IMG/VR virus record: IMGVR_UViG_3300043775_000620
Span: 1-30,913 of that record
DNA from: a virus
Strand: one strand, 5' to 3'
Length of the DNA stretch: 30,913 nucleotides
Part shown: in pieces, positions 3,853-30,913 of the stretch
Numbering within the stretch: position 1 is the first letter of the stretch
Layout of the letters: each line of letters begins with the position of its first letter
Notes under the pieces: model-generated
The model's database searches: none
What the model saw: the letters and a program-made list of their open reading frames with translations, nothing else
Told to the model about the DNA's origin: nothing
Translations under genes and position numbers: made by a program

Positions 3853-4382
3853 TTTAATTCTTTTATTTTTTGTTTATAGATTGCAATAAGTTCTTTTACT
3901 TCATCTACGCTTAATTTAAGAGGTTTGTGTCGTATTTCTAATAGTTCGCTATATTCTTTATCACTTATAACATTTTGAAGTCTTAAATCGTATTCTTTTA
4001 CGTTTCCGTGTTTATGTAGGTTACATTCTACGCATTGACCATGTACGTTATTTTCATTAAATCGTAAGTTAGGATATGCTCCAACAGAAAAGAAATGCCC
4101 AGCGTGAAAAGTTTTACCTAAATTTTTACCACAAGAAATACAAGGTTTAAGTTTGTCTCTTTGGCGTATGTAAGTGTTAAAAACTTTCTGCAAGATATTT
4201 AAGTAATCAGATTTACTCATTAATTTTATTTTGATTTCTTTTTTTTCTTGCTTCCAATTTTTAGCGTTTTGCTTTTTCATATACTCAACTGCACAAGATG
4301 GACTACAAACTATTTGAGTGCTGTTTTTAGGTGTAAACTTATCTTTACAAACTAAACATTTCCTTTCGTATATTTTAAGCAT
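3849..4382 (-). CDS. ninG: NinG/Rap-family recombination endonuclease
   Basis: N-terminal CxxC...C...C and a C-terminal CISCGK...HAGHFFSVGAYPNLRFNENNVHGQCVECNLHKHGN signature typical of lambda NinG-like proteins. Confidence 0.8.
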   Translation of the reverse strand: MLKIYERKCLVCKDKFTPKNSTQIVCSPSCAVEYMKKQNAKNWKQEKKEIKIKLMSKSDYLNILQKVFNTYIRQRDKLKPCISCGKNLGKTFHAGHFFSVGAYPNLRFNENNVHGQCVECNLHKHGNVKEYDLRLQNVISDKEYSELLEIRHKPLKLSVDEVKELIAIYKQKIKELK

Positions 4383-12814: not shown

Positions 12815-13021
12815 ATGAACATATTAGAAAAACTAATTTCAGAAAATGCGAAAAATAAAAATCAATTCGCTAAACTTGTAGGTGAAACACCTCAAACAAT
12901 TAACGCACAGGTAAAGTCAAAGAATCCATTATTACCAGCGTACAATTACGCAAAAATTTTAGGTAAAAAAGAATTGAAAGGAAATGCAAACGGAGTAGAA
13001 ATACATTTGATATTTGGTTAA
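12815..13021 (+). CDS. Small XRE/Cro-like HTH protein (68 aa)
   Basis: KNQFAKLVGETPQTINAQVKS resembles a helix-turn-helix core. Confidence 0.45.
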   Translation: MNILEKLISENAKNKNQFAKLVGETPQTINAQVKSKNPLLPAYNYAKILGKKELKGNANGVEIHLIFG

Positions 13022-13157
13022 CGTTCCCACGCTTGGCGAAGGTGGCGATTTTAACCACGAATGCCAATGCGGAGAACGTAACTTGAATATAGCAGTAAAT
13101 GTCAAGCGGAGTACTGCACCGCCACTTTTGCCAAACGTGTGTTAACCGCTGTTTTTT
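13021..13157 (+). ncRNA. Candidate structured RNA element or leader of unknown class upstream of the RNA ligase
   Basis: Locally GC-rich non-coding stretch. A long irregular hairpin pairs 13021..13037 with 13063..13079. GCAGTA (13092..13097) pairs with TACTGC (13112..13117), interleaved with GCGG (13106..13109) pairing to CCGC (13119..13122). Several mutually exclusive pairings exist, and the element ends in a T6 run. Confidence 0.35.
13140..13155. repeat. Left arm of the 16-nt inverted repeat bracketing the ligase ORF (TGTTAACCGCTGTTTT)
   Basis: Reverse complement of 14102..14117 at 15 of 16 positions. Confidence 0.9.
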
Positions 13158-13182
13158 ATTAATCAAATTAAAATTTATAAAT

Positions 13183-14103
13183 ATGTTTAAAAAGTATCAA
13201 CATTTAGAAAGATTTGGAACTACAGAAGTTCAAAACATTGAATTAGGAGAATGTTATATATTCCCAAAAATTGACGGAACAAATGCAAGTGTATGGCTTC
13301 ATAACGGAGAAATACAAGCTGGAAGCCGAACACGTCATTTATCACTTGAAAAAGACAATGCTGGATTTTTAGATTGGGTTTTAAAACAAGAAAACTTATT
13401 AAATTATCTAAAAGAAAATCCAACACATAGACTTTTCGGAGAATGGCTTGTCCCACACTCTTTGAAAACTTACAGAAACGATGCTTGGAGAAAGTTTTAT
13501 GTTTTTGAAGTTGTAGAAGATAGATTAGAAAATGAATTGCAACACGAGAGCGATGAAAAATTTAACTATTTGCATTATAACGATTATAAGCCATTATTAG
13601 AGAAATACGAAATTGATTTTATACCGCCTATTGCTGTAATTAGAAATAGTAATTACGAACAAATAGTAAATCAATTAATGAAAAATGATTTTCTTATTGA
13701 AGATGGCAAAGGTTACGGAGAAGGAATTGTCTTAAAAAATTACGATTTTAAAAATAAATATGGTCGTAAAACTTGGGCTAAAATTGTAACAAGTGAGTTT
13801 AAAGAAAAACACGCTAAAGTTATGGGTAGAACAACTATTGAAGGTAAAAAAATGGTTGAAGAACTAATTGCTGAAAAATATGTTACAACTGCTTTTTGCG
13901 AAAAAGAGTTTGCAAAAATTGAAAGCGTTGATGGTTGGAGCAGTAAAATGATACCAAGATTATTGAATGTTATTTACTATGAAATTGTAAAAGAGGAATG
14001 CTGGAATTTTGTTAAAGAAAATCGTAACCCGACTATTAATTTTAAAACGCTTCAACATTTCGTTTTCGCTAAAGTTCGTGAAATATTACCGAACGTCTTT
14101 TAA
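13183..14103 (+). CDS. ATP-dependent RNA ligase, Rnl2-like (covalent nucleotidyltransferase superfamily)
   Basis: Motif I KIDGTN (Lys29), motif III-like LFGEWL, motif IV EGIVLK, motif V-like TWAKIV, and a helical C-terminal domain with no OB-fold-sized extension. Start set at ATG 13183; the track's upstream 28 codons lie in the structured non-coding region. Confidence 0.75.
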   Translation: MFKKYQHLERFGTTEVQNIELGECYIFPKIDGTNASVWLHNGEIQAGSRTRHLSLEKDNAGFLDWVLKQENLLNYLKENPTHRLFGEWLVPHSLKTYRNDAWRKFYVFEVVEDRLENELQHESDEKFNYLHYNDYKPLLEKYEIDFIPPIAVIRNSNYEQIVNQLMKNDFLIEDGKGYGEGIVLKNYDFKNKYGRKTWAKIVTSEFKEKHAKVMGRTTIEGKKMVEELIAEKYVTTAFCEKEFAKIESVDGWSSKMIPRLLNVIYYEIVKEECWNFVKENRNPTINFKTLQHFVFAKVREILPNVF

Positions 14104-14117
14104 AATAGCGGTTAACA
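14102..14117. repeat. Right arm of the 16-nt inverted repeat (AAAATAGCGGTTAACA)
   Basis: Reverse complement of 13140..13155; overlaps the ligase stop codon. Confidence 0.9.
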
Positions 14118-14121
14118 GTCT

Positions 14122-14157
14122 GATTGGCGATGGTTTTAATCTCGCCAATCATTTGTT
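14122..14157 (+). terminator. Hairpin with a T-rich tail downstream of the ligase (candidate terminator or processing hairpin)
   Basis: GATTGGCGA-N11-TCGCCAATC (9 bp) followed by ATTTGTT. The arms are related to the upstream hairpin (TTGGCGA...GCCAAT). Confidence 0.5.
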
Positions 14158-14181
14158 ATAAATTAAATAAATAAATAAATT

Positions 14182-14391
14182 ATGGATAAAACAATTATTA
14201 TAAAATCCTTGCAATGTTATATAACAAGGAAAACGCAAAAGATAAATCGAATTAATAGAATTATTTTAAATGACCCTGGTTGTGAAAATTTACAGAATTT
14301 AAAAAGAGGATTAAGGCATAACAAGGCATTGATAAAAAGAGCTGAACAGCAAATTTTATTCTTTGAGAATTTTGTTTTTAATAAACTATAA
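14182..14391 (+). CDS. Hypothetical basic protein (69 aa)
   Basis: Intact ORF; its 3' end converges on and overlaps 14386..14955 by 6 nt. No family recognised. Confidence 0.45.
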   Translation: MDKTIIIKSLQCYITRKTQKINRINRIILNDPGCENLQNLKRGLRHNKALIKRAEQQILFFENFVFNKL

Positions 14392-14955
14392 AGAACTACC
14401 AACTACAACACCCAACACAACACCAATCGGCAAAGCGTACTTATAGAAATTATTTGTGCGCTTTTGCTTTTTAATAAACTTCTCTTGCTTTTTTGCAAGT
14501 TCAATTAAATTTTTCTCTTTTACTTCAAATTGACCTATAATACTATCTTTAAAAATACCTGCAGTTTTTTCATTTCCTAACATTTCAGTAGTAACAACAT
14601 ACATACTATCTACATAATCGCAATCAACTAAACGCAAAGCAATTTCTAAACTATCTTTGTCTTTTAAAACTACTTTAGGATTTATGCGTTTTAAGGCACT
14701 TTTTTTATTTTTGTATAGTCTTTGTAGTTCAGATTGTTTCTTTTGATTCTGACTATCTAAAAACGCTATTGTGTCACGATATTTAGATATTACTTCTTTA
14801 TTTATGGAATCATTTTTTACTTTTACTTCTTTATAGACTAATTTAGGTGCAGGACTTTCGCAACCTCTAAAAAGCATAAATACTAAAAGCACCACAAAAG
14901 CAATAAACCAAATGTTTAATCGCTTAATAAAATTGTATAGATTAATTTGTATCAT
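14386..14955 (-). CDS. Membrane protein with an N-terminal signal/lipobox-like Cys and a C-terminal TM anchor (u-spanin-like architecture)
   Basis: N-terminus KRLNIWFIAFVVLLVFMLFRGC(32)ESPAP; extreme C-terminus YALPIGVVLGVVVGSSL; the middle is charged and helical. Confidence 0.6.
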   Translation of the reverse strand: MIQINLYNFIKRLNIWFIAFVVLLVFMLFRGCESPAPKLVYKEVKVKNDSINKEVISKYRDTIAFLDSQNQKKQSELQRLYKNKKSALKRINPKVVLKDKDSLEIALRLVDCDYVDSMYVVTTEMLGNEKTAGIFKDSIIGQFEVKEKNLIELAKKQEKFIKKQKRTNNFYKYALPIGVVLGVVVGSSL

Positions 14956-15139
14956 TAGTAATATCTTTTAATTGTTTAAAAATTTGCTCTTGATTTTCTC
15001 CCCAGAACATTTCACATTTCCCATCTTTATAAGGCGGTTCTGTGAAGTAACTTTGCCACATTCCATCTATTGCTTTATACCTTTTGCAATTATCTTTTAA
15101 TGGGCAATTAAAACCGCTACATTTTGTTATATCACTCAT
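14942..15139 (-). CDS. Small Cys-rich hypothetical protein (65 aa)
   Basis: TKCSGFNCPLKDNCKRY...GKCEMFW cysteine pattern; overlaps both neighbours. Confidence 0.6.
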   Translation of the reverse strand: MSDITKCSGFNCPLKDNCKRYKAIDGMWQSYFTEPPYKDGKCEMFWGENQEQIFKQLKDITNDTN

Positions 15140-20750: not shown

Positions 20751-20785
20751 TTTATTTAAAAACAACAATTTAACATTTTTGTTAA
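20751..20785 (-). promoter_or_regulatory. Conserved bipartite upstream motif, copy 2 (TTAACAAAAA-N10-TTGTTTTTAAATAAA)
   Basis: 15-mer at 20765..20751 (minus strand), 8 nt before ATG 20742. Confidence 0.5.
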
Positions 20786-23195: not shown

Positions 23196-23242
23196 TTTAT
23201 TTAAAAACAAGGTTTGTTTAATGTTGTTGTATTTTTTGTTAT
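23196..23242 (-). promoter_or_regulatory. Conserved upstream motif, copy 3 (ATAACAAAAAAT-N20-TTGTTTTTAAATAAA; longer spacer)
   Basis: 15-mer at 23210..23196 (minus strand), 10 nt before ATG 23185. The upstream half, 23242..23231, is identical to that of copy 4. Confidence 0.45.
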
Positions 23243-24403: not shown

Positions 24404-24438
24404 TTTATTTAAAAACAACAATTAATATTTTTTGTTAT
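24404..24438 (-). promoter_or_regulatory. Conserved bipartite upstream motif, copy 4 (ATAACAAAAAAT-N8-TTGTTTTTAAATAAA)
   Basis: 15-mer at 24418..24404 (minus strand), 8 nt before ATG 24395, downstream of hairpin 24482..24507. Confidence 0.5.
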
Positions 24439-28970: not shown

Positions 28971-29995
28971 ATAACATCATTTATTAGTCCGTAGTTGTAC
29001 TCAAATTCAATTTCGTAGTTAATATTCTTATCTTTCAAATGCGTTTTAATATCAAAACTTTGACTTTTAACTATTGCAGGTTTATTATCTAATAAAACAA
29101 CCTCGCTCAACATTAAATCCTGAATTAACTCCGAATAGTTTTCATCAATCCACCCGGTATTACATTTTATCTTTTGCGTACCTTGAAAATTAAATCTTTG
29201 TTTAATGCCTTGTAATGGATTGAAATCTATTGATGAAGGTAATAGATTAAAGTCTTTAGATTTTACGTCTATGCCTTGACTATTAGCTTTAAAAAAAGTA
29301 AGATACTGCCACCCTCCAAAACGATTAATAAATGTGCAAATAATTGGAGTATATTTTGGCTCACAAAGTTGCTCTAAATAAACAGTCTTTATTGTATCTT
29401 CTTGAATTATTAGTAATTTAGTTGTATTAGTTTTTATAGGAACTTTATACATATTTGCATCATCTCCAGCTTCTACTATTGTTGAAGTATCTATTAAAGT
29501 ATTTCCATTATACCATTCAACTATAGTATCAAATTCTTCTGCAGTATCAATCCATACGTTTAAATAATATCCGCTTATTGTATTGTAATATATTTTTTGA
29601 TTTCCACTTAACCCTATAACACCATCTTCATTTATTTGATTGTAGCCACCCGAATATTGAGTATATCCGTTTAAGCAAACATAAACCTCATCTAATACTT
29701 CAACATTATCTGAATAACTTATAACACGCATATAACACCACGTATTTACATTTTCTTCAGTAGGTACAGATACGCTAACTGGTGCAATAGGTTTAATGAA
29801 AGACTTTGCTAAATTAGAAACATTCCAAGATAACTTTGTTTGTGTTGGACTTGGTATTTGTTTTGTAAAAGTATAGTTTGGAGTTGTAGGTTCTGTCGTA
29901 TCCTTATTCCACAAAAACACTTCTATCTTTGCCGAAGTTTGCCCTACCTCATCAACTTCAATAAAATACGGACTTCTAATAAATATCTTTTTCAT
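28967..29995 (-). CDS. Tail structural protein (342 aa)
   Basis: Beta-rich ORF coupled to the neighbouring tail genes by 4-nt overlaps. No family recognised. Confidence 0.5.
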   Translation of the reverse strand: MKKIFIRSPYFIEVDEVGQTSAKIEVFLWNKDTTEPTTPNYTFTKQIPSPTQTKLSWNVSNLAKSFIKPIAPVSVSVPTEENVNTWCYMRVISYSDNVEVLDEVYVCLNGYTQYSGGYNQINEDGVIGLSGNQKIYYNTISGYYLNVWIDTAEEFDTIVEWYNGNTLIDTSTIVEAGDDANMYKVPIKTNTTKLLIIQEDTIKTVYLEQLCEPKYTPIICTFINRFGGWQYLTFFKANSQGIDVKSKDFNLLPSSIDFNPLQGIKQRFNFQGTQKIKCNTGWIDENYSELIQDLMLSEVVLLDNKPAIVKSQSFDIKTHLKDKNINYEIEFEYNYGLINDVI

Positions 29996-30507
29996 TTCTT
30001 ATTAATTGTATATTGTAAAAATTGTTCAACATCCAAACCATACGCTTCAATTAATTCATCAGGCAAACGTTCAAATGCTTTCTCAAATGGTTTAGTAAAA
30101 AATAAACTCGGTTTAATACCATTCTTAAAAATACCTTTCGTAATTAAAAAAGCAGTTGATTTGTAACTCATAAATTTACCATTTTCTTTGTTACGAAATT
30201 GAAATCTTCTTTTTGTTACCCAATCTTGTATCGGTTTCAAAGGCGGTCTTTTGCTTTTATAACTAAATGGTGTGTCGTATTTCTTTTGCGTTCCTGAAAC
30301 CCCTTTGTCTTGGTAAGCTCCGTAATCTTCCATTAAAAAAGCCATTCTAAAACTATTAGCACCTACTTCAATTTCTTTATCTAAAGAGTTGTAAAGTTTC
30401 TTATCTACGTTTTTACCTTGCTTTGTTAAATTGCTCCTACTTTGTTGGATCACATATTTAGCAAATGCGTTTAAATACTCTTTTGTATTTTTATTATCTA
30501 ATTGCAT
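29992..30507 (-). CDS. Putative tail-completion / HK97 gp10-like protein (171 aa)
   Basis: Size, position and an N-terminal FAKYVIQQSRSNLTKQGKNVDKKLYNSL pattern loosely fit gp10-like proteins. Confidence 0.35.
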   Translation of the reverse strand: MQLDNKNTKEYLNAFAKYVIQQSRSNLTKQGKNVDKKLYNSLDKEIEVGANSFRMAFLMEDYGAYQDKGVSGTQKKYDTPFSYKSKRPPLKPIQDWVTKRRFQFRNKENGKFMSYKSTAFLITKGIFKNGIKPSLFFTKPFEKAFERLPDELIEAYGLDVEQFLQYTINKK

Positions 30508-30913
30508 ATAGTCATATCATTACGAACCAATACATCAAACGTCAACGCCCACCCTGCTAAATCATTTTCAAATCTTTCTGTAAATGGTTCAAAACTTGGT
30601 GAACCTGTCAACTCCCAAAAGTCATTACGTAAATCGCCACGATTTAACCTATCCATTACTCGAACCCCTAAACTCATTTGCGTATTCCAAACGTCAACCT
30701 TATTACTTTCGTCTTTTTGATTAAGTAAATCCATTAAAAGAATAGTAACATTAAATTGTATTACATTGCCTTGATGCGTTGCTGAATTAATCATAATATG
30801 CGACAAAGGAAATAATGTCCTTTTAGCTAAATCTACTTCAAAAATGTCACCCTCTGTAACTGTATTTACAAAAGGTTCATCAAGTAACGCTTCTTTTATT
30901 TTATTTATTAAAC
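30498..30913 (-). CDS. Junction-spanning neck/tail-completion-like gene, 3' part; the frame stays open to the window end and the true ATG is at the position equivalent to 137
   Basis: The track's start at 30806 is a TTG. The frame remains open upstream through 30913, and the duplicated copy at 1..137 supplies MVYSLINKIKEALLDEPFVNTVTEGDIFEVDLAKRTLFPL... Confidence 0.65.
   Translation of the reverse strand, partial: LINKIKEALLDEPFVNTVTEGDIFEVDLAKRTLFPLSHIMINSATHQGNVIQFNVTILLMDLLNQKDESNKVDVWNTQMSLGVRVMDRLNRGDLRNDFWELTGSPSFEPFTERFENDLAGWALTFDVLVRNDMTICN
30787..30913. repeat. Terminal direct repeat copy 2, identical to 1..127
   Basis: Base-by-base identity with the window start. Confidence 0.95.

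Follow-up and report, generated by a model that had tools for sequence, protein, structure and literature searches.

The GC-rich element and its genomic setting

We analysed a stretch of viral DNA of 30,913 nucleotides (IMG/VR record IMGVR_UViG_3300043775_000620; hereafter, the window), focusing on a GC-rich non-coding element upstream of a gene of the RNA-ligase family. The element contains a long hairpin, H, that is conserved in a strand-specific manner. Hairpins of the same family stand in arrays in other phages, complementary heptamers bracket the genes between them, and relatives differ by whole cassettes with TAAC borders. The window carries an exact 127-nt direct repeat at its ends (1–127 = 30787–30913) and is a complete, circularly assembled phage genome, of ~30.8 kb. 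By sequence similarity, its relatives are Cellulophaga and Flavobacterium phages.

The GC-rich stretch (13019–13182, + strand) lies between the stop codon of a 68-codon backbone open reading frame (ORF; 12815–13021, + strand), which is the TAA of a TAACG motif, and the start of the ligase gene (13183–14103, + strand; PF09414), a cargo gene with 76% nucleotide identity to gp003 of Cellulophaga phage phi19:3. The phi19:3 homologue begins at the equivalent of position 13183, in agreement with an earlier note on this DNA, made from the sequence alone, that had described the stretch as non-coding. The G+C content of the element is 50%, against 30% genome-wide, placing it third among 130-nt windows of the genome; the two richer ones are both inside a long ORF.

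The element folds better than shuffled controls. As RNA, the + strand folds at −50.5 kcal/mol (z = −3.76), a value that none of 200 shuffles equalled; for the − strand, z is −2.64. Under DNA parameters, the + strand folds at −25.0 kcal/mol (z = −2.75) and forms the conserved hairpin, and the − strand folds at −22.7 kcal/mol (z = −2.13) and does not form it. The minimum-free-energy fold is a single long hairpin, closed by pairings that the note had listed as alternatives. The note could place the element in no known RNA family, and neither could we: Rfam at the gathering threshold and ARAGORN (transfer RNA and transfer-messenger RNA) gave no match in the window or in five array loci, and relaxing E to 10 returned chance-level matches only.

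Architecture of hairpin H

H occupies positions 13019–13144 on the + strand. It begins with TAACG and a loop of 4 nt; a helix of 4 bp, a C·A mismatch and a helix of 15 bp lead to an apex of 72 nt, and the sequence ends in TGTTA. The 5′ core TAACG (P1; 13019–13023), which is also the left border of the cassette described below, pairs with the 3′ core TGTTA (13140–13144) to close the hairpin: TAAC pairs with GTTA at 13141–13144, and G13023 faces T13140 in an invariant G·T(U) pair. Four unpaired nucleotides (J5; 13024–13027) make up the 5′ side of an asymmetric internal loop, which across the family measures 4–6 nt on this side versus 0–2 nt on the 3′ side. The 5′ strand of helix P2, CACG (13028–13031), pairs with CGTG (13136–13139); C13032 faces A13135 between P2 and P3; and the 5′ strand of P3, TTGGCGAAGGTGGCG (13033–13047), pairs with 13120–13134 and includes G13041·T13126, the invariant wobble of the family. 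The 3′ strands run continuously from 13120 to 13139. The replaceable apex (13048–13119) resembles nothing among all of the loci that we fetched; it holds the local hairpins favoured by the earlier note, as well as an ATG at 13099 in the reading frame of the ligase. The mechanical ORF that starts there (13099–14103) runs through the 3′ arm of H, the heptamer that follows and the leader. This 13099–13182 extension is probably incidental, because it is missing in phi19:3 and, by eye, seems to be closed by stop codons in locus L005.

H is followed by a heptamer, X (ACCGCTG, of the form N6 + G; 13145–13151), and by a T-run with the A/T-rich leader of the ligase (13152–13182), the T-run starting 7 nt past the base of the stem. 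Just beyond the ligase gene lies X′ (TAGCGGT, of the form T + N6′; 14106–14112), which is complementary to X through six Watson–Crick pairs plus T14106·G13151. It abuts a TAAC core and a short resident hairpin, H2 (14113–14158; GATTGGCGA at 14122–14130 with TCGCCAATC at 14142–14150, and TGTTA at 14154–14158). A search of the window for further copies of H found only this degenerate short hairpin.

Every complementary segment that the earlier note listed is present in the sequence; its choice among them did not hold. The two pairings that it treated as competing, TTGGC 13033–13037 with GCCAA 13130–13134 and GTGGCG 13042–13047 with CGCCAC 13120–13125, are conserved, and the local ones that it favoured are not. 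Its 13021–13037/13063–13079 hairpin, the GTGG/CCAC cap and the GCAGTA/TACTGC hairpin all lie in or use the apex, which is exchanged for unrelated sequence in the closest homologues. The proposed GCGG/CCGC H-type pseudoknot also uses the apex and would compete with the conserved helix. A further suggestion, ACGTT 13021–13025 with AACGT 13133–13137, was out of register with the conserved pairings of TAACG 13019–13023 with TGTTA 13140–13144 and of CACG 13028–13031 with CGTG 13136–13139. The T6 run that the note remarked on is real. We rejected an intrinsic terminator at this position: in the aligned copies a variable 7-nt heptamer separates the stem from the T-run, and a terminator scan made no call.

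A covarying hairpin family

Similarity and pattern searches found the same hairpin ends, 5′ TAACGTTCCCACGCTTGGCGAAG and 3′ TTTTGCCAAACGTGTGTTAACCGCTG, around unrelated or far shorter interiors in other phages. A covariance model built from 25 copies gave 108 matches in Flavobacteriia phages at E < 1e-9, 89 of them distinct, bearing out the proposal of a conserved, structured and covarying element; the counts that follow come from the alignment fitted to this model, and the sequences in it are related. Paired cells amount to 93.7%, against 35–48% when the partners are slid by 1–3 columns, and both sides change in 18 of the 19 main-helix pairs. The TAAC/GTTA core is invariant (87–89 of 89 distinct copies), as are two G·U(T) pairs (87 and 88 of 89). 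The C·A mismatch between P2 and P3 is kept in 81 of 89 distinct copies, and a one-base bulge six pairs above it is found in ~80% of copies. Among the variable pairs, we counted 1397 Watson–Crick, 25 G·U/U·G and 19 A·C/C·A cells; wobble is thus no commoner there than mismatch.

H is mostly 64–131 nt long; a single copy from a bacterial genome reaches ~160 nt. The apex has no conserved sequence and measures either 7–18 nt or ~70 nt (mostly 64–77 nt, with exceptions of 34 nt in two copies and 53 nt in another). Of 63 hairpins with a long apex, 22 have an ORF of ≥40 codons that begins within them and continues through the 3′ arm. The long apexes are near-constant in length (mostly 70–73 nt), A-rich and unalignable (for example, L005:1524-1680, L076:1359-1515 and L012:768-926). 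They resemble three to four degenerate ~18-nt units, each with a terminal CAC, and often end in a AAACATTAAATTAAT(C)AC-like motif reminiscent of the sequence upstream of start codons in these phages.

Arrays in accessory-gene operons

Up to ~15 copies occur per genome, roughly one in each intergenic gap of early accessory-gene operons and always on the coding strand. Flavobacterium phage lillamy9-1 carries ~15 copies, all on the gene strand of its leftward early operon (2.2–9.0 kb), and none elsewhere in its 38-kb genome; one metagenomic contig holds nine hairpins in 4 kb. A BLAST search with a single hairpin matched 41 Flavobacterium phage records and one oyster-associated phage, none of which annotates the element. 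The family appears not to have been described before, and our literature searches found no description of it.

A long upstream ORF ends no more than 39 nt from TAACG in 85 of 90 contexts. In 63 of these 85, the stop codon starts at one of three offsets relative to TAACG: 0 (23 cases), where the TAA of TAACG serves as the stop codon, −7 (19 cases) or −12 (21 cases). On the downstream side, an ATG follows GTTA by 13–42 nt in 45 of 80 units. This spacing of stop and start codons around the hairpins indicates that the units are co-transcribed and that the T-run belongs to a leader and not to a terminator tail. DNA methyltransferases are the dominant cargo (16 of 97 large ORFs near arrays), and NinG and RecT also occur near arrays; the window phage itself encodes ERF, NinG and a methyltransferase, as identified by a Pfam scan of its proteins.

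Several observations concern existing records and neighbouring sequences. Deposited annotations, in L002/L123 (NC_048835; 7615–7716) and other records, place small ‘hypothetical protein’ ORFs in the hairpins (for example, gp22 of lillamy9-1), and some extend methyltransferase genes into them; both are probably annotation artefacts. The deposited starts of lillamy gp09 and gp24 fall inside long-apex hairpins. Units with X = ACCGCTG (for example, L002 1534–1640 and L004 5990–6090) often share a conserved stretch of ~100 nt (AAATATTTTAAAAATAATTG...TTTG...TATATTTG) before the ATG. Judged by its motifs, this stretch seems to carry a Bacteroidetes-type −33/−7 promoter, so that some cassettes would bring an internal promoter. 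The ligase gene of phi19:3 has no hairpin and is flanked on both sides by the motif AATTAATGTTAAC (L001, ~2970–2985 and 3970–3985), perhaps what is left of the TGTTA core, or else a signal with no relation to it.

In a scan of a genome collection with the 3′ tail pattern, the only clear member came from Flavobacterium sasangense (L104); the other hits were an insertion sequence-like repeat and chance matches. The 21-mer AAACCACTGTTAACCGCTGTT also occurs in a near-identical repeated element of >150 nt in Sulfuritalea, Comamonadaceae, a Serpentinimonas plasmid and others (L095–L122). This betaproteobacterial repeat is probably an insertion-sequence end unrelated to the phage hairpins. In the window, four copies of TTTATTTAAAAACAA..TTTTTGT (878–909, 20751–20782, 23196–23227 and 24404–24435) precede leftward genes and are probably promoter or leader motifs of late genes.

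Complementary heptamers bracket the mobile genes

TGTTA is followed by a heptamer (N6 + G) whose complement (T + N6′) immediately precedes TAACG in the next hairpin. Full heptamer pairing between hairpin n and hairpin n+1 is found in 76% of 68 adjacent pairs, typically as six Watson–Crick pairs plus a G·T at position 7. By contrast, the controls gave 3% (own flank), 2% (hairpin n+2) and 8% (random pairs). The gene between two hairpins is therefore enclosed by an inverted repeat of 11–12 nt, GTTA-N6-G ... T-N6′-TAAC; around the window ligase, its two halves are GTTAACCGCTG (13141–13151) and TAGCGGTTAAC (14106–14116). The median distance from the end of X to the ATG is ~32 nt; at the other end of the gene, the stop codon is overlapped or immediately followed by X′. 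No bracket surrounds the backbone genes that lie beside a hairpin. In comparisons of near-identical hairpins, the same X occurs with a different X′ in 45 pairs and the reverse in none, although this count is inflated because many loci were retrieved by a pattern with X = ACCGCTG. Fold-back priming was considered as the origin of the brackets and rejected: it would invert the polarity of the fixed mismatches, and no such inversion is seen.

Relatives differ by whole cassettes

Comparison of the window with the ligase-carrying contigs L005 and L059 revealed homology limited to 13019–13041 and 13126–14116. The window cassette is thereby delimited as 13019–14116, the positions at which homology to other contigs begins and ends, with the right junction not fixed to the base. 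The backbone ORF upstream is common to 16 relatives, 13 of them at 94–100% amino acid identity. After its TAA, these relatives carry nothing, a gene without a hairpin, or one, two, three or at least five cassettes. All of the hairpin arrays among them start at TAA|CG, each with a different hairpin, and five wholly different hairpins abut the same backbone base with only TAACGTT in common. In the relative L127, a different cassette, with a small zinc-ribbon-like ORF and its own matching heptamers, precedes the same H2. The slot between the backbone ORF and the leftward genes (13022–14957 in the window; L127–L139) is a hyperplastic hot spot; its end is marked in the relatives by a conserved terminator, bidirectional in kind (TTAATTAAAAAACCACCTATAACAAGGTGGTTTTATTTTTT), that is missing from the window.

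Four closely related Flavobacterium phages likewise differ by the insertion or replacement of whole units. In these phages, a hairpin stays with its downstream heptamer and gene while its upstream neighbour changes. Some hairpins in such comparisons look chimeric.

An attC-like reading of the hairpin

These observations led us to a reading to which we give an even chance, namely that H is an attC-like single-stranded-DNA recombination site that borders mobile gene cassettes in marine and freshwater Flavobacteriia phages. A cassette would have the layout [TAACG-H-TGTTA][X = N6+G][A/T-rich leader + ORF][X′ = T+N6′] and end at the next TAAC; the window cassette, with its RNA-ligase gene, would sit in the hot spot right after the backbone stop codon. 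When single-stranded during replication or recombination, the coding strand would fold into the long imperfect hairpin. A structure-specific enzyme would then read the fixed non-Watson–Crick positions: the G·T at the inner end of TAAC/GTTA, the C·A, the bulge six base pairs up and the G·T within the long helix. Whole cassettes would be excised or inserted when two hairpins exchange strands in the TAAC core. In an excised circle, X′ and X would flank H and make its stem longer by 7 bp, which we propose as the reason that each cassette has its own complementary heptamers.

We infer that the folded molecule is DNA rather than RNA, and likewise infer a circular intermediate, the place of the cut and an enzyme; for the enzyme we can only guess at NinG/Rap with ERF/RecT or at a recombinase of the host. 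RNA helices normally tolerate G·U well, and single-stranded DNA is therefore favoured by the finding that the variable pairs show wobble no more often than A·C. Three further features favour DNA: the restriction of the brackets to mobile units, the ORFs that read through the 3′ arm of long-apex hairpins, and the abutment of different hairpins on one backbone base with only TAACGTT in common. The bracket pattern is also the one to which recombination within the stem of a folded site gives rise in integrons. Because H is transcribed within the operon, it probably also affects the mRNA; we do not think that it regulates the ligase specifically.

Comparison with integron attC sites supports the analogy in several respects. 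attC sites are palindromes of 57–141 bp between RYYYAAC and GTTRRRY and are recognised as folded bottom strands through extrahelical bases (PMC3053210). H is likewise an imperfect palindrome of variable sequence between ..AAC and GTT.. triplets, and its usual length falls within the attC range; beyond TAAC/GTTA, it does not follow the attC consensus. Like attC arrays, the phage units are compact, co-oriented and mostly promoterless, and the first bases of a cassette can pair with the inverse core at the opposite end, as the heptamer pairing and its controls show. As in attC, certain fixed positions on one strand of H are unpaired or mismatched, and the terminal structure varies. A 2023 survey found integrase-less attC clusters (CALINs) in 17 phages, including a virulent Polaribacter (Flavobacteriia) phage with methyltransferase cassettes, and IntI1-dependent recombination at five of six tested sites; the tested bottom strands, the aadA7 control included, read 5′-..TAACG...TGTTA..-3′ (PMC9892861). 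The arrays described here resemble those clusters in their methyltransferase cargo and the lack of an integrase nearby, and H is bounded by the same TAACG...TGTTA. No Flavobacterium or Cellulophaga phage appears in that survey (PMC9892861), although genomes of such phages were public.

H nevertheless departs from attC in other features. Its best-folding strand is the coding strand, it has an extra short helix (P2), and its border lies at the 5′ TAAC, whereas attC crossover takes place at G|TT, at the far (3′) end. In attC, two extrahelical bases (typically T-N6-G) protrude from the folded bottom strand and the central spacer lies mainly on the other arm; H has G·T and C·A mismatches in their place. 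The complementary flanks of H extend the core to 11–12 bp with a hypervariable N6, and its apex falls mainly into two size classes. H would work like an attC/CALIN array without being a canonical member.

A number of points weigh against the attC-like reading. An attC site lies downstream of its own ORF, whereas H precedes the downstream gene and travels with it. Compared with the aadA7 bottom strand, the coding-strand 5′ arm of H carries the C·A mismatch, the bulge six base pairs up and the long spacer together, so that, unlike in attC, the one-sided spacer and the bulge are on the same arm. A Pfam scan of the 97 large ORFs near arrays and of 28 window proteins found no phage-borne linked integrase: the single tyrosine recombinase (1 of 97) is in the bacterial locus L104, and lillamy9-1 has no annotated recombinase. 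Neither a circular cassette nor an empty/filled pair at nucleotide resolution on the right side was seen. The covariation counts, with their model-fitted alignment of related sequences, and the inflated count linking X to its hairpin also call for caution. Finally, the sense-only orientation, the stop codon in the 5′ core and the A/T-rich leader fit an RNA role equally well, and G·U pairs are natural in RNA.

The published site most like H, P12002L_attC1, is the sole one of the six that IntI1 did not recombine (PMC9892861), and our covariance model found no match in Polaribacter phage P12002L; both count against the same reading. By eye, attC1 (L143, record ~29175–30058) lies on the coding strand between two methyltransferase genes and shows TAACG, a 5-nt loop, a stem, AT and TGTTA. 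The heptamer that follows it, GGCACTT, can pair at 5 of 6 positions with the bases in front of the next TAAC, an imperfect bracket; this TAAC forms the core of attC2 as published. P12002L attC1 may be a distant relative of the hairpin family.

We also entertain, as a doubtful possibility, that Flavobacteriia phages run a cassette exchange of their own that is independent of any integrase, in which the mismatch hairpin would be the docking site and the heptamers would ‘barcode’ the cassettes. Cutting and joining at the TAAC/GTTA core would then fall to structure-specific enzymes of the phage, such as NinG/Rap with an ERF/RecT annealase, or to a recombinase not yet recognised.

Alternative explanations

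The main competitor, which we regard as possible but on balance unlikely, is that H punctuates a polycistronic early mRNA. In that case, H would fold between cistrons and the heptamers would pair the 5′ leader of a cistron with its 3′ end, for processing by an RNase III-like or other nuclease, end protection or insulation of translation starts, and the shuffling would be a by-product of conserved repeats. Intercistronic RNase III sites in T7 early mRNA and the processing stems of rRNA operons are familiar hairpins between co-transcribed genes, and hok mRNA folds back 5′ to 3′. H resembles these systems as a conserved internal-loop hairpin between co-transcribed early genes and in the long-range pairing of the sequences around a functional unit. 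The hairpins are always in sense orientation inside operons; many units have no room for a promoter, and therefore their hairpins must be transcribed. Three invariant G·U positions, the better folding of the sense strand and the tight fit of the bracket around the ORF, with X shortly before the ATG and X′ at the stop codon, also suit an RNA role. So does the combined length of P2 and P3, ~20–22 bp, which is the size of an RNase III substrate.

By contrast, the variable positions of H, unlike those RNA elements, do not tolerate wobble (25 G·U against 19 A·C in ~1,600 cells), and its brackets are confined to mobile units, hairpin-adjacent backbone genes being unbracketed. Punctuation of mRNA also sits poorly with the ORFs that run from inside the hairpin through the 3′ arm in about a third of long-apex copies and with the absence of any Rfam match, and it leaves unexplained why different cassettes meet the same backbone position at TAA|CG. 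The DNA-site and RNA readings are not mutually exclusive; the choice between DNA and RNA is not settled, and we favour DNA.

Less probable still is that H is a linker like the PeSLs of T4-type phages, repeated stem-loops at which motif-bounded modular shuffling occurs, mini-circles included (PMC2839356, PMC4122927). Such a linker would be a stem-loop, perhaps a weak terminator and sometimes followed by a promoter, that provides only homology for general recombination by ERF/RecT and NinG. PeSLs are the closest phage analogue for motif-bounded shuffling: H, too, repeats intergenically in hyperplastic regions rich in small accessory genes, and insertions, deletions and replacements between close relatives are bounded by it. 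The presence of ERF and NinG in the window phage and of NinG and RecT near arrays, the chimeric appearance of some hairpins, and the promoter-like stretch (from its −33/−7-type motifs) that often follows in ACCGCTG units all agree with this explanation. PeSLs, however, are short promoter-plus-terminator composites that act through homologous recombination, whereas H is a hairpin of 64–131 nt with strong covariation and fixed mismatches, most H units are promoterless, and each H-unit gene has its own complementary heptamers. Homologous exchange explains neither the cassette-specific heptamers with their fixed G·T nor the covariation with fixed mismatches. Ordinary homologous recombination is further disfavoured because TAACGTT, the sole sequence common to the five abutting hairpins, is too short. 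In addition, 7 nt or more separate the end of the stem from the T-run, which is not the arrangement of a canonical intrinsic terminator.

The earlier note had proposed a switchable leader, such as an attenuator or riboswitch, or a stable small RNA that serves the ligase through mutually exclusive pairings and a pseudoknot, or else a substrate or guide of the ligase. The significant folding is in keeping with such a role, and H-type hairpins also precede the ligase in L005, L012 and L059. However, the duplicated partner segments sit in the apex, and because the apex is replaced in the closest homologues, no alternative (attenuator) helix is conserved. The family adjoins many unrelated genes, mostly DNA methyltransferases and small ORFs, with dozens of copies beside them, and the phi19:3 ligase does without the element; a ligase-specific leader was rejected on these grounds. 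Nor does H have a conserved core resembling a ligand pocket or a match in Rfam, and we consider this role very improbable. Equally improbable is that a miniature inverted-repeat transposable element has inserted ahead of the ligase: the long terminal stem could be read as terminal inverted repeats and the element is multi-copy, but all 108 copies are in one orientation, the arms covary freely with no transposase-specific sequence kept, there are no direct target duplications, and the flanks pair with those of the next or previous element and not with each other.

Implications for phage gene exchange

Several Flavobacterium phage records among the 41 in which the family is unannotated contain spurious or over-extended ORFs across the hairpins. 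Together, TAACG, a covarying hairpin, TGTTA and paired heptamers form a signature by which metagenomes can be searched for mobile phage cargo. Existing phage–host pairs (the vB_FspS phages with Flavobacterium sp. LMO6 and LMO9) allow the fixed G·T and C·A positions and the barcoded stems to be tested directly. If the attC-like reading is correct, virulent phages that lack an integrase would gain, lose and reorder accessory genes in the manner of integrons, which would provide a concrete mechanism for the hyperplastic regions of many phage genomes. The methyltransferase cargo probably protects against restriction, and if the exchange is indeed integrase-independent, methyltransferases, ligases and other anti-defence genes would be plug-in units that virulent phages could exchange.

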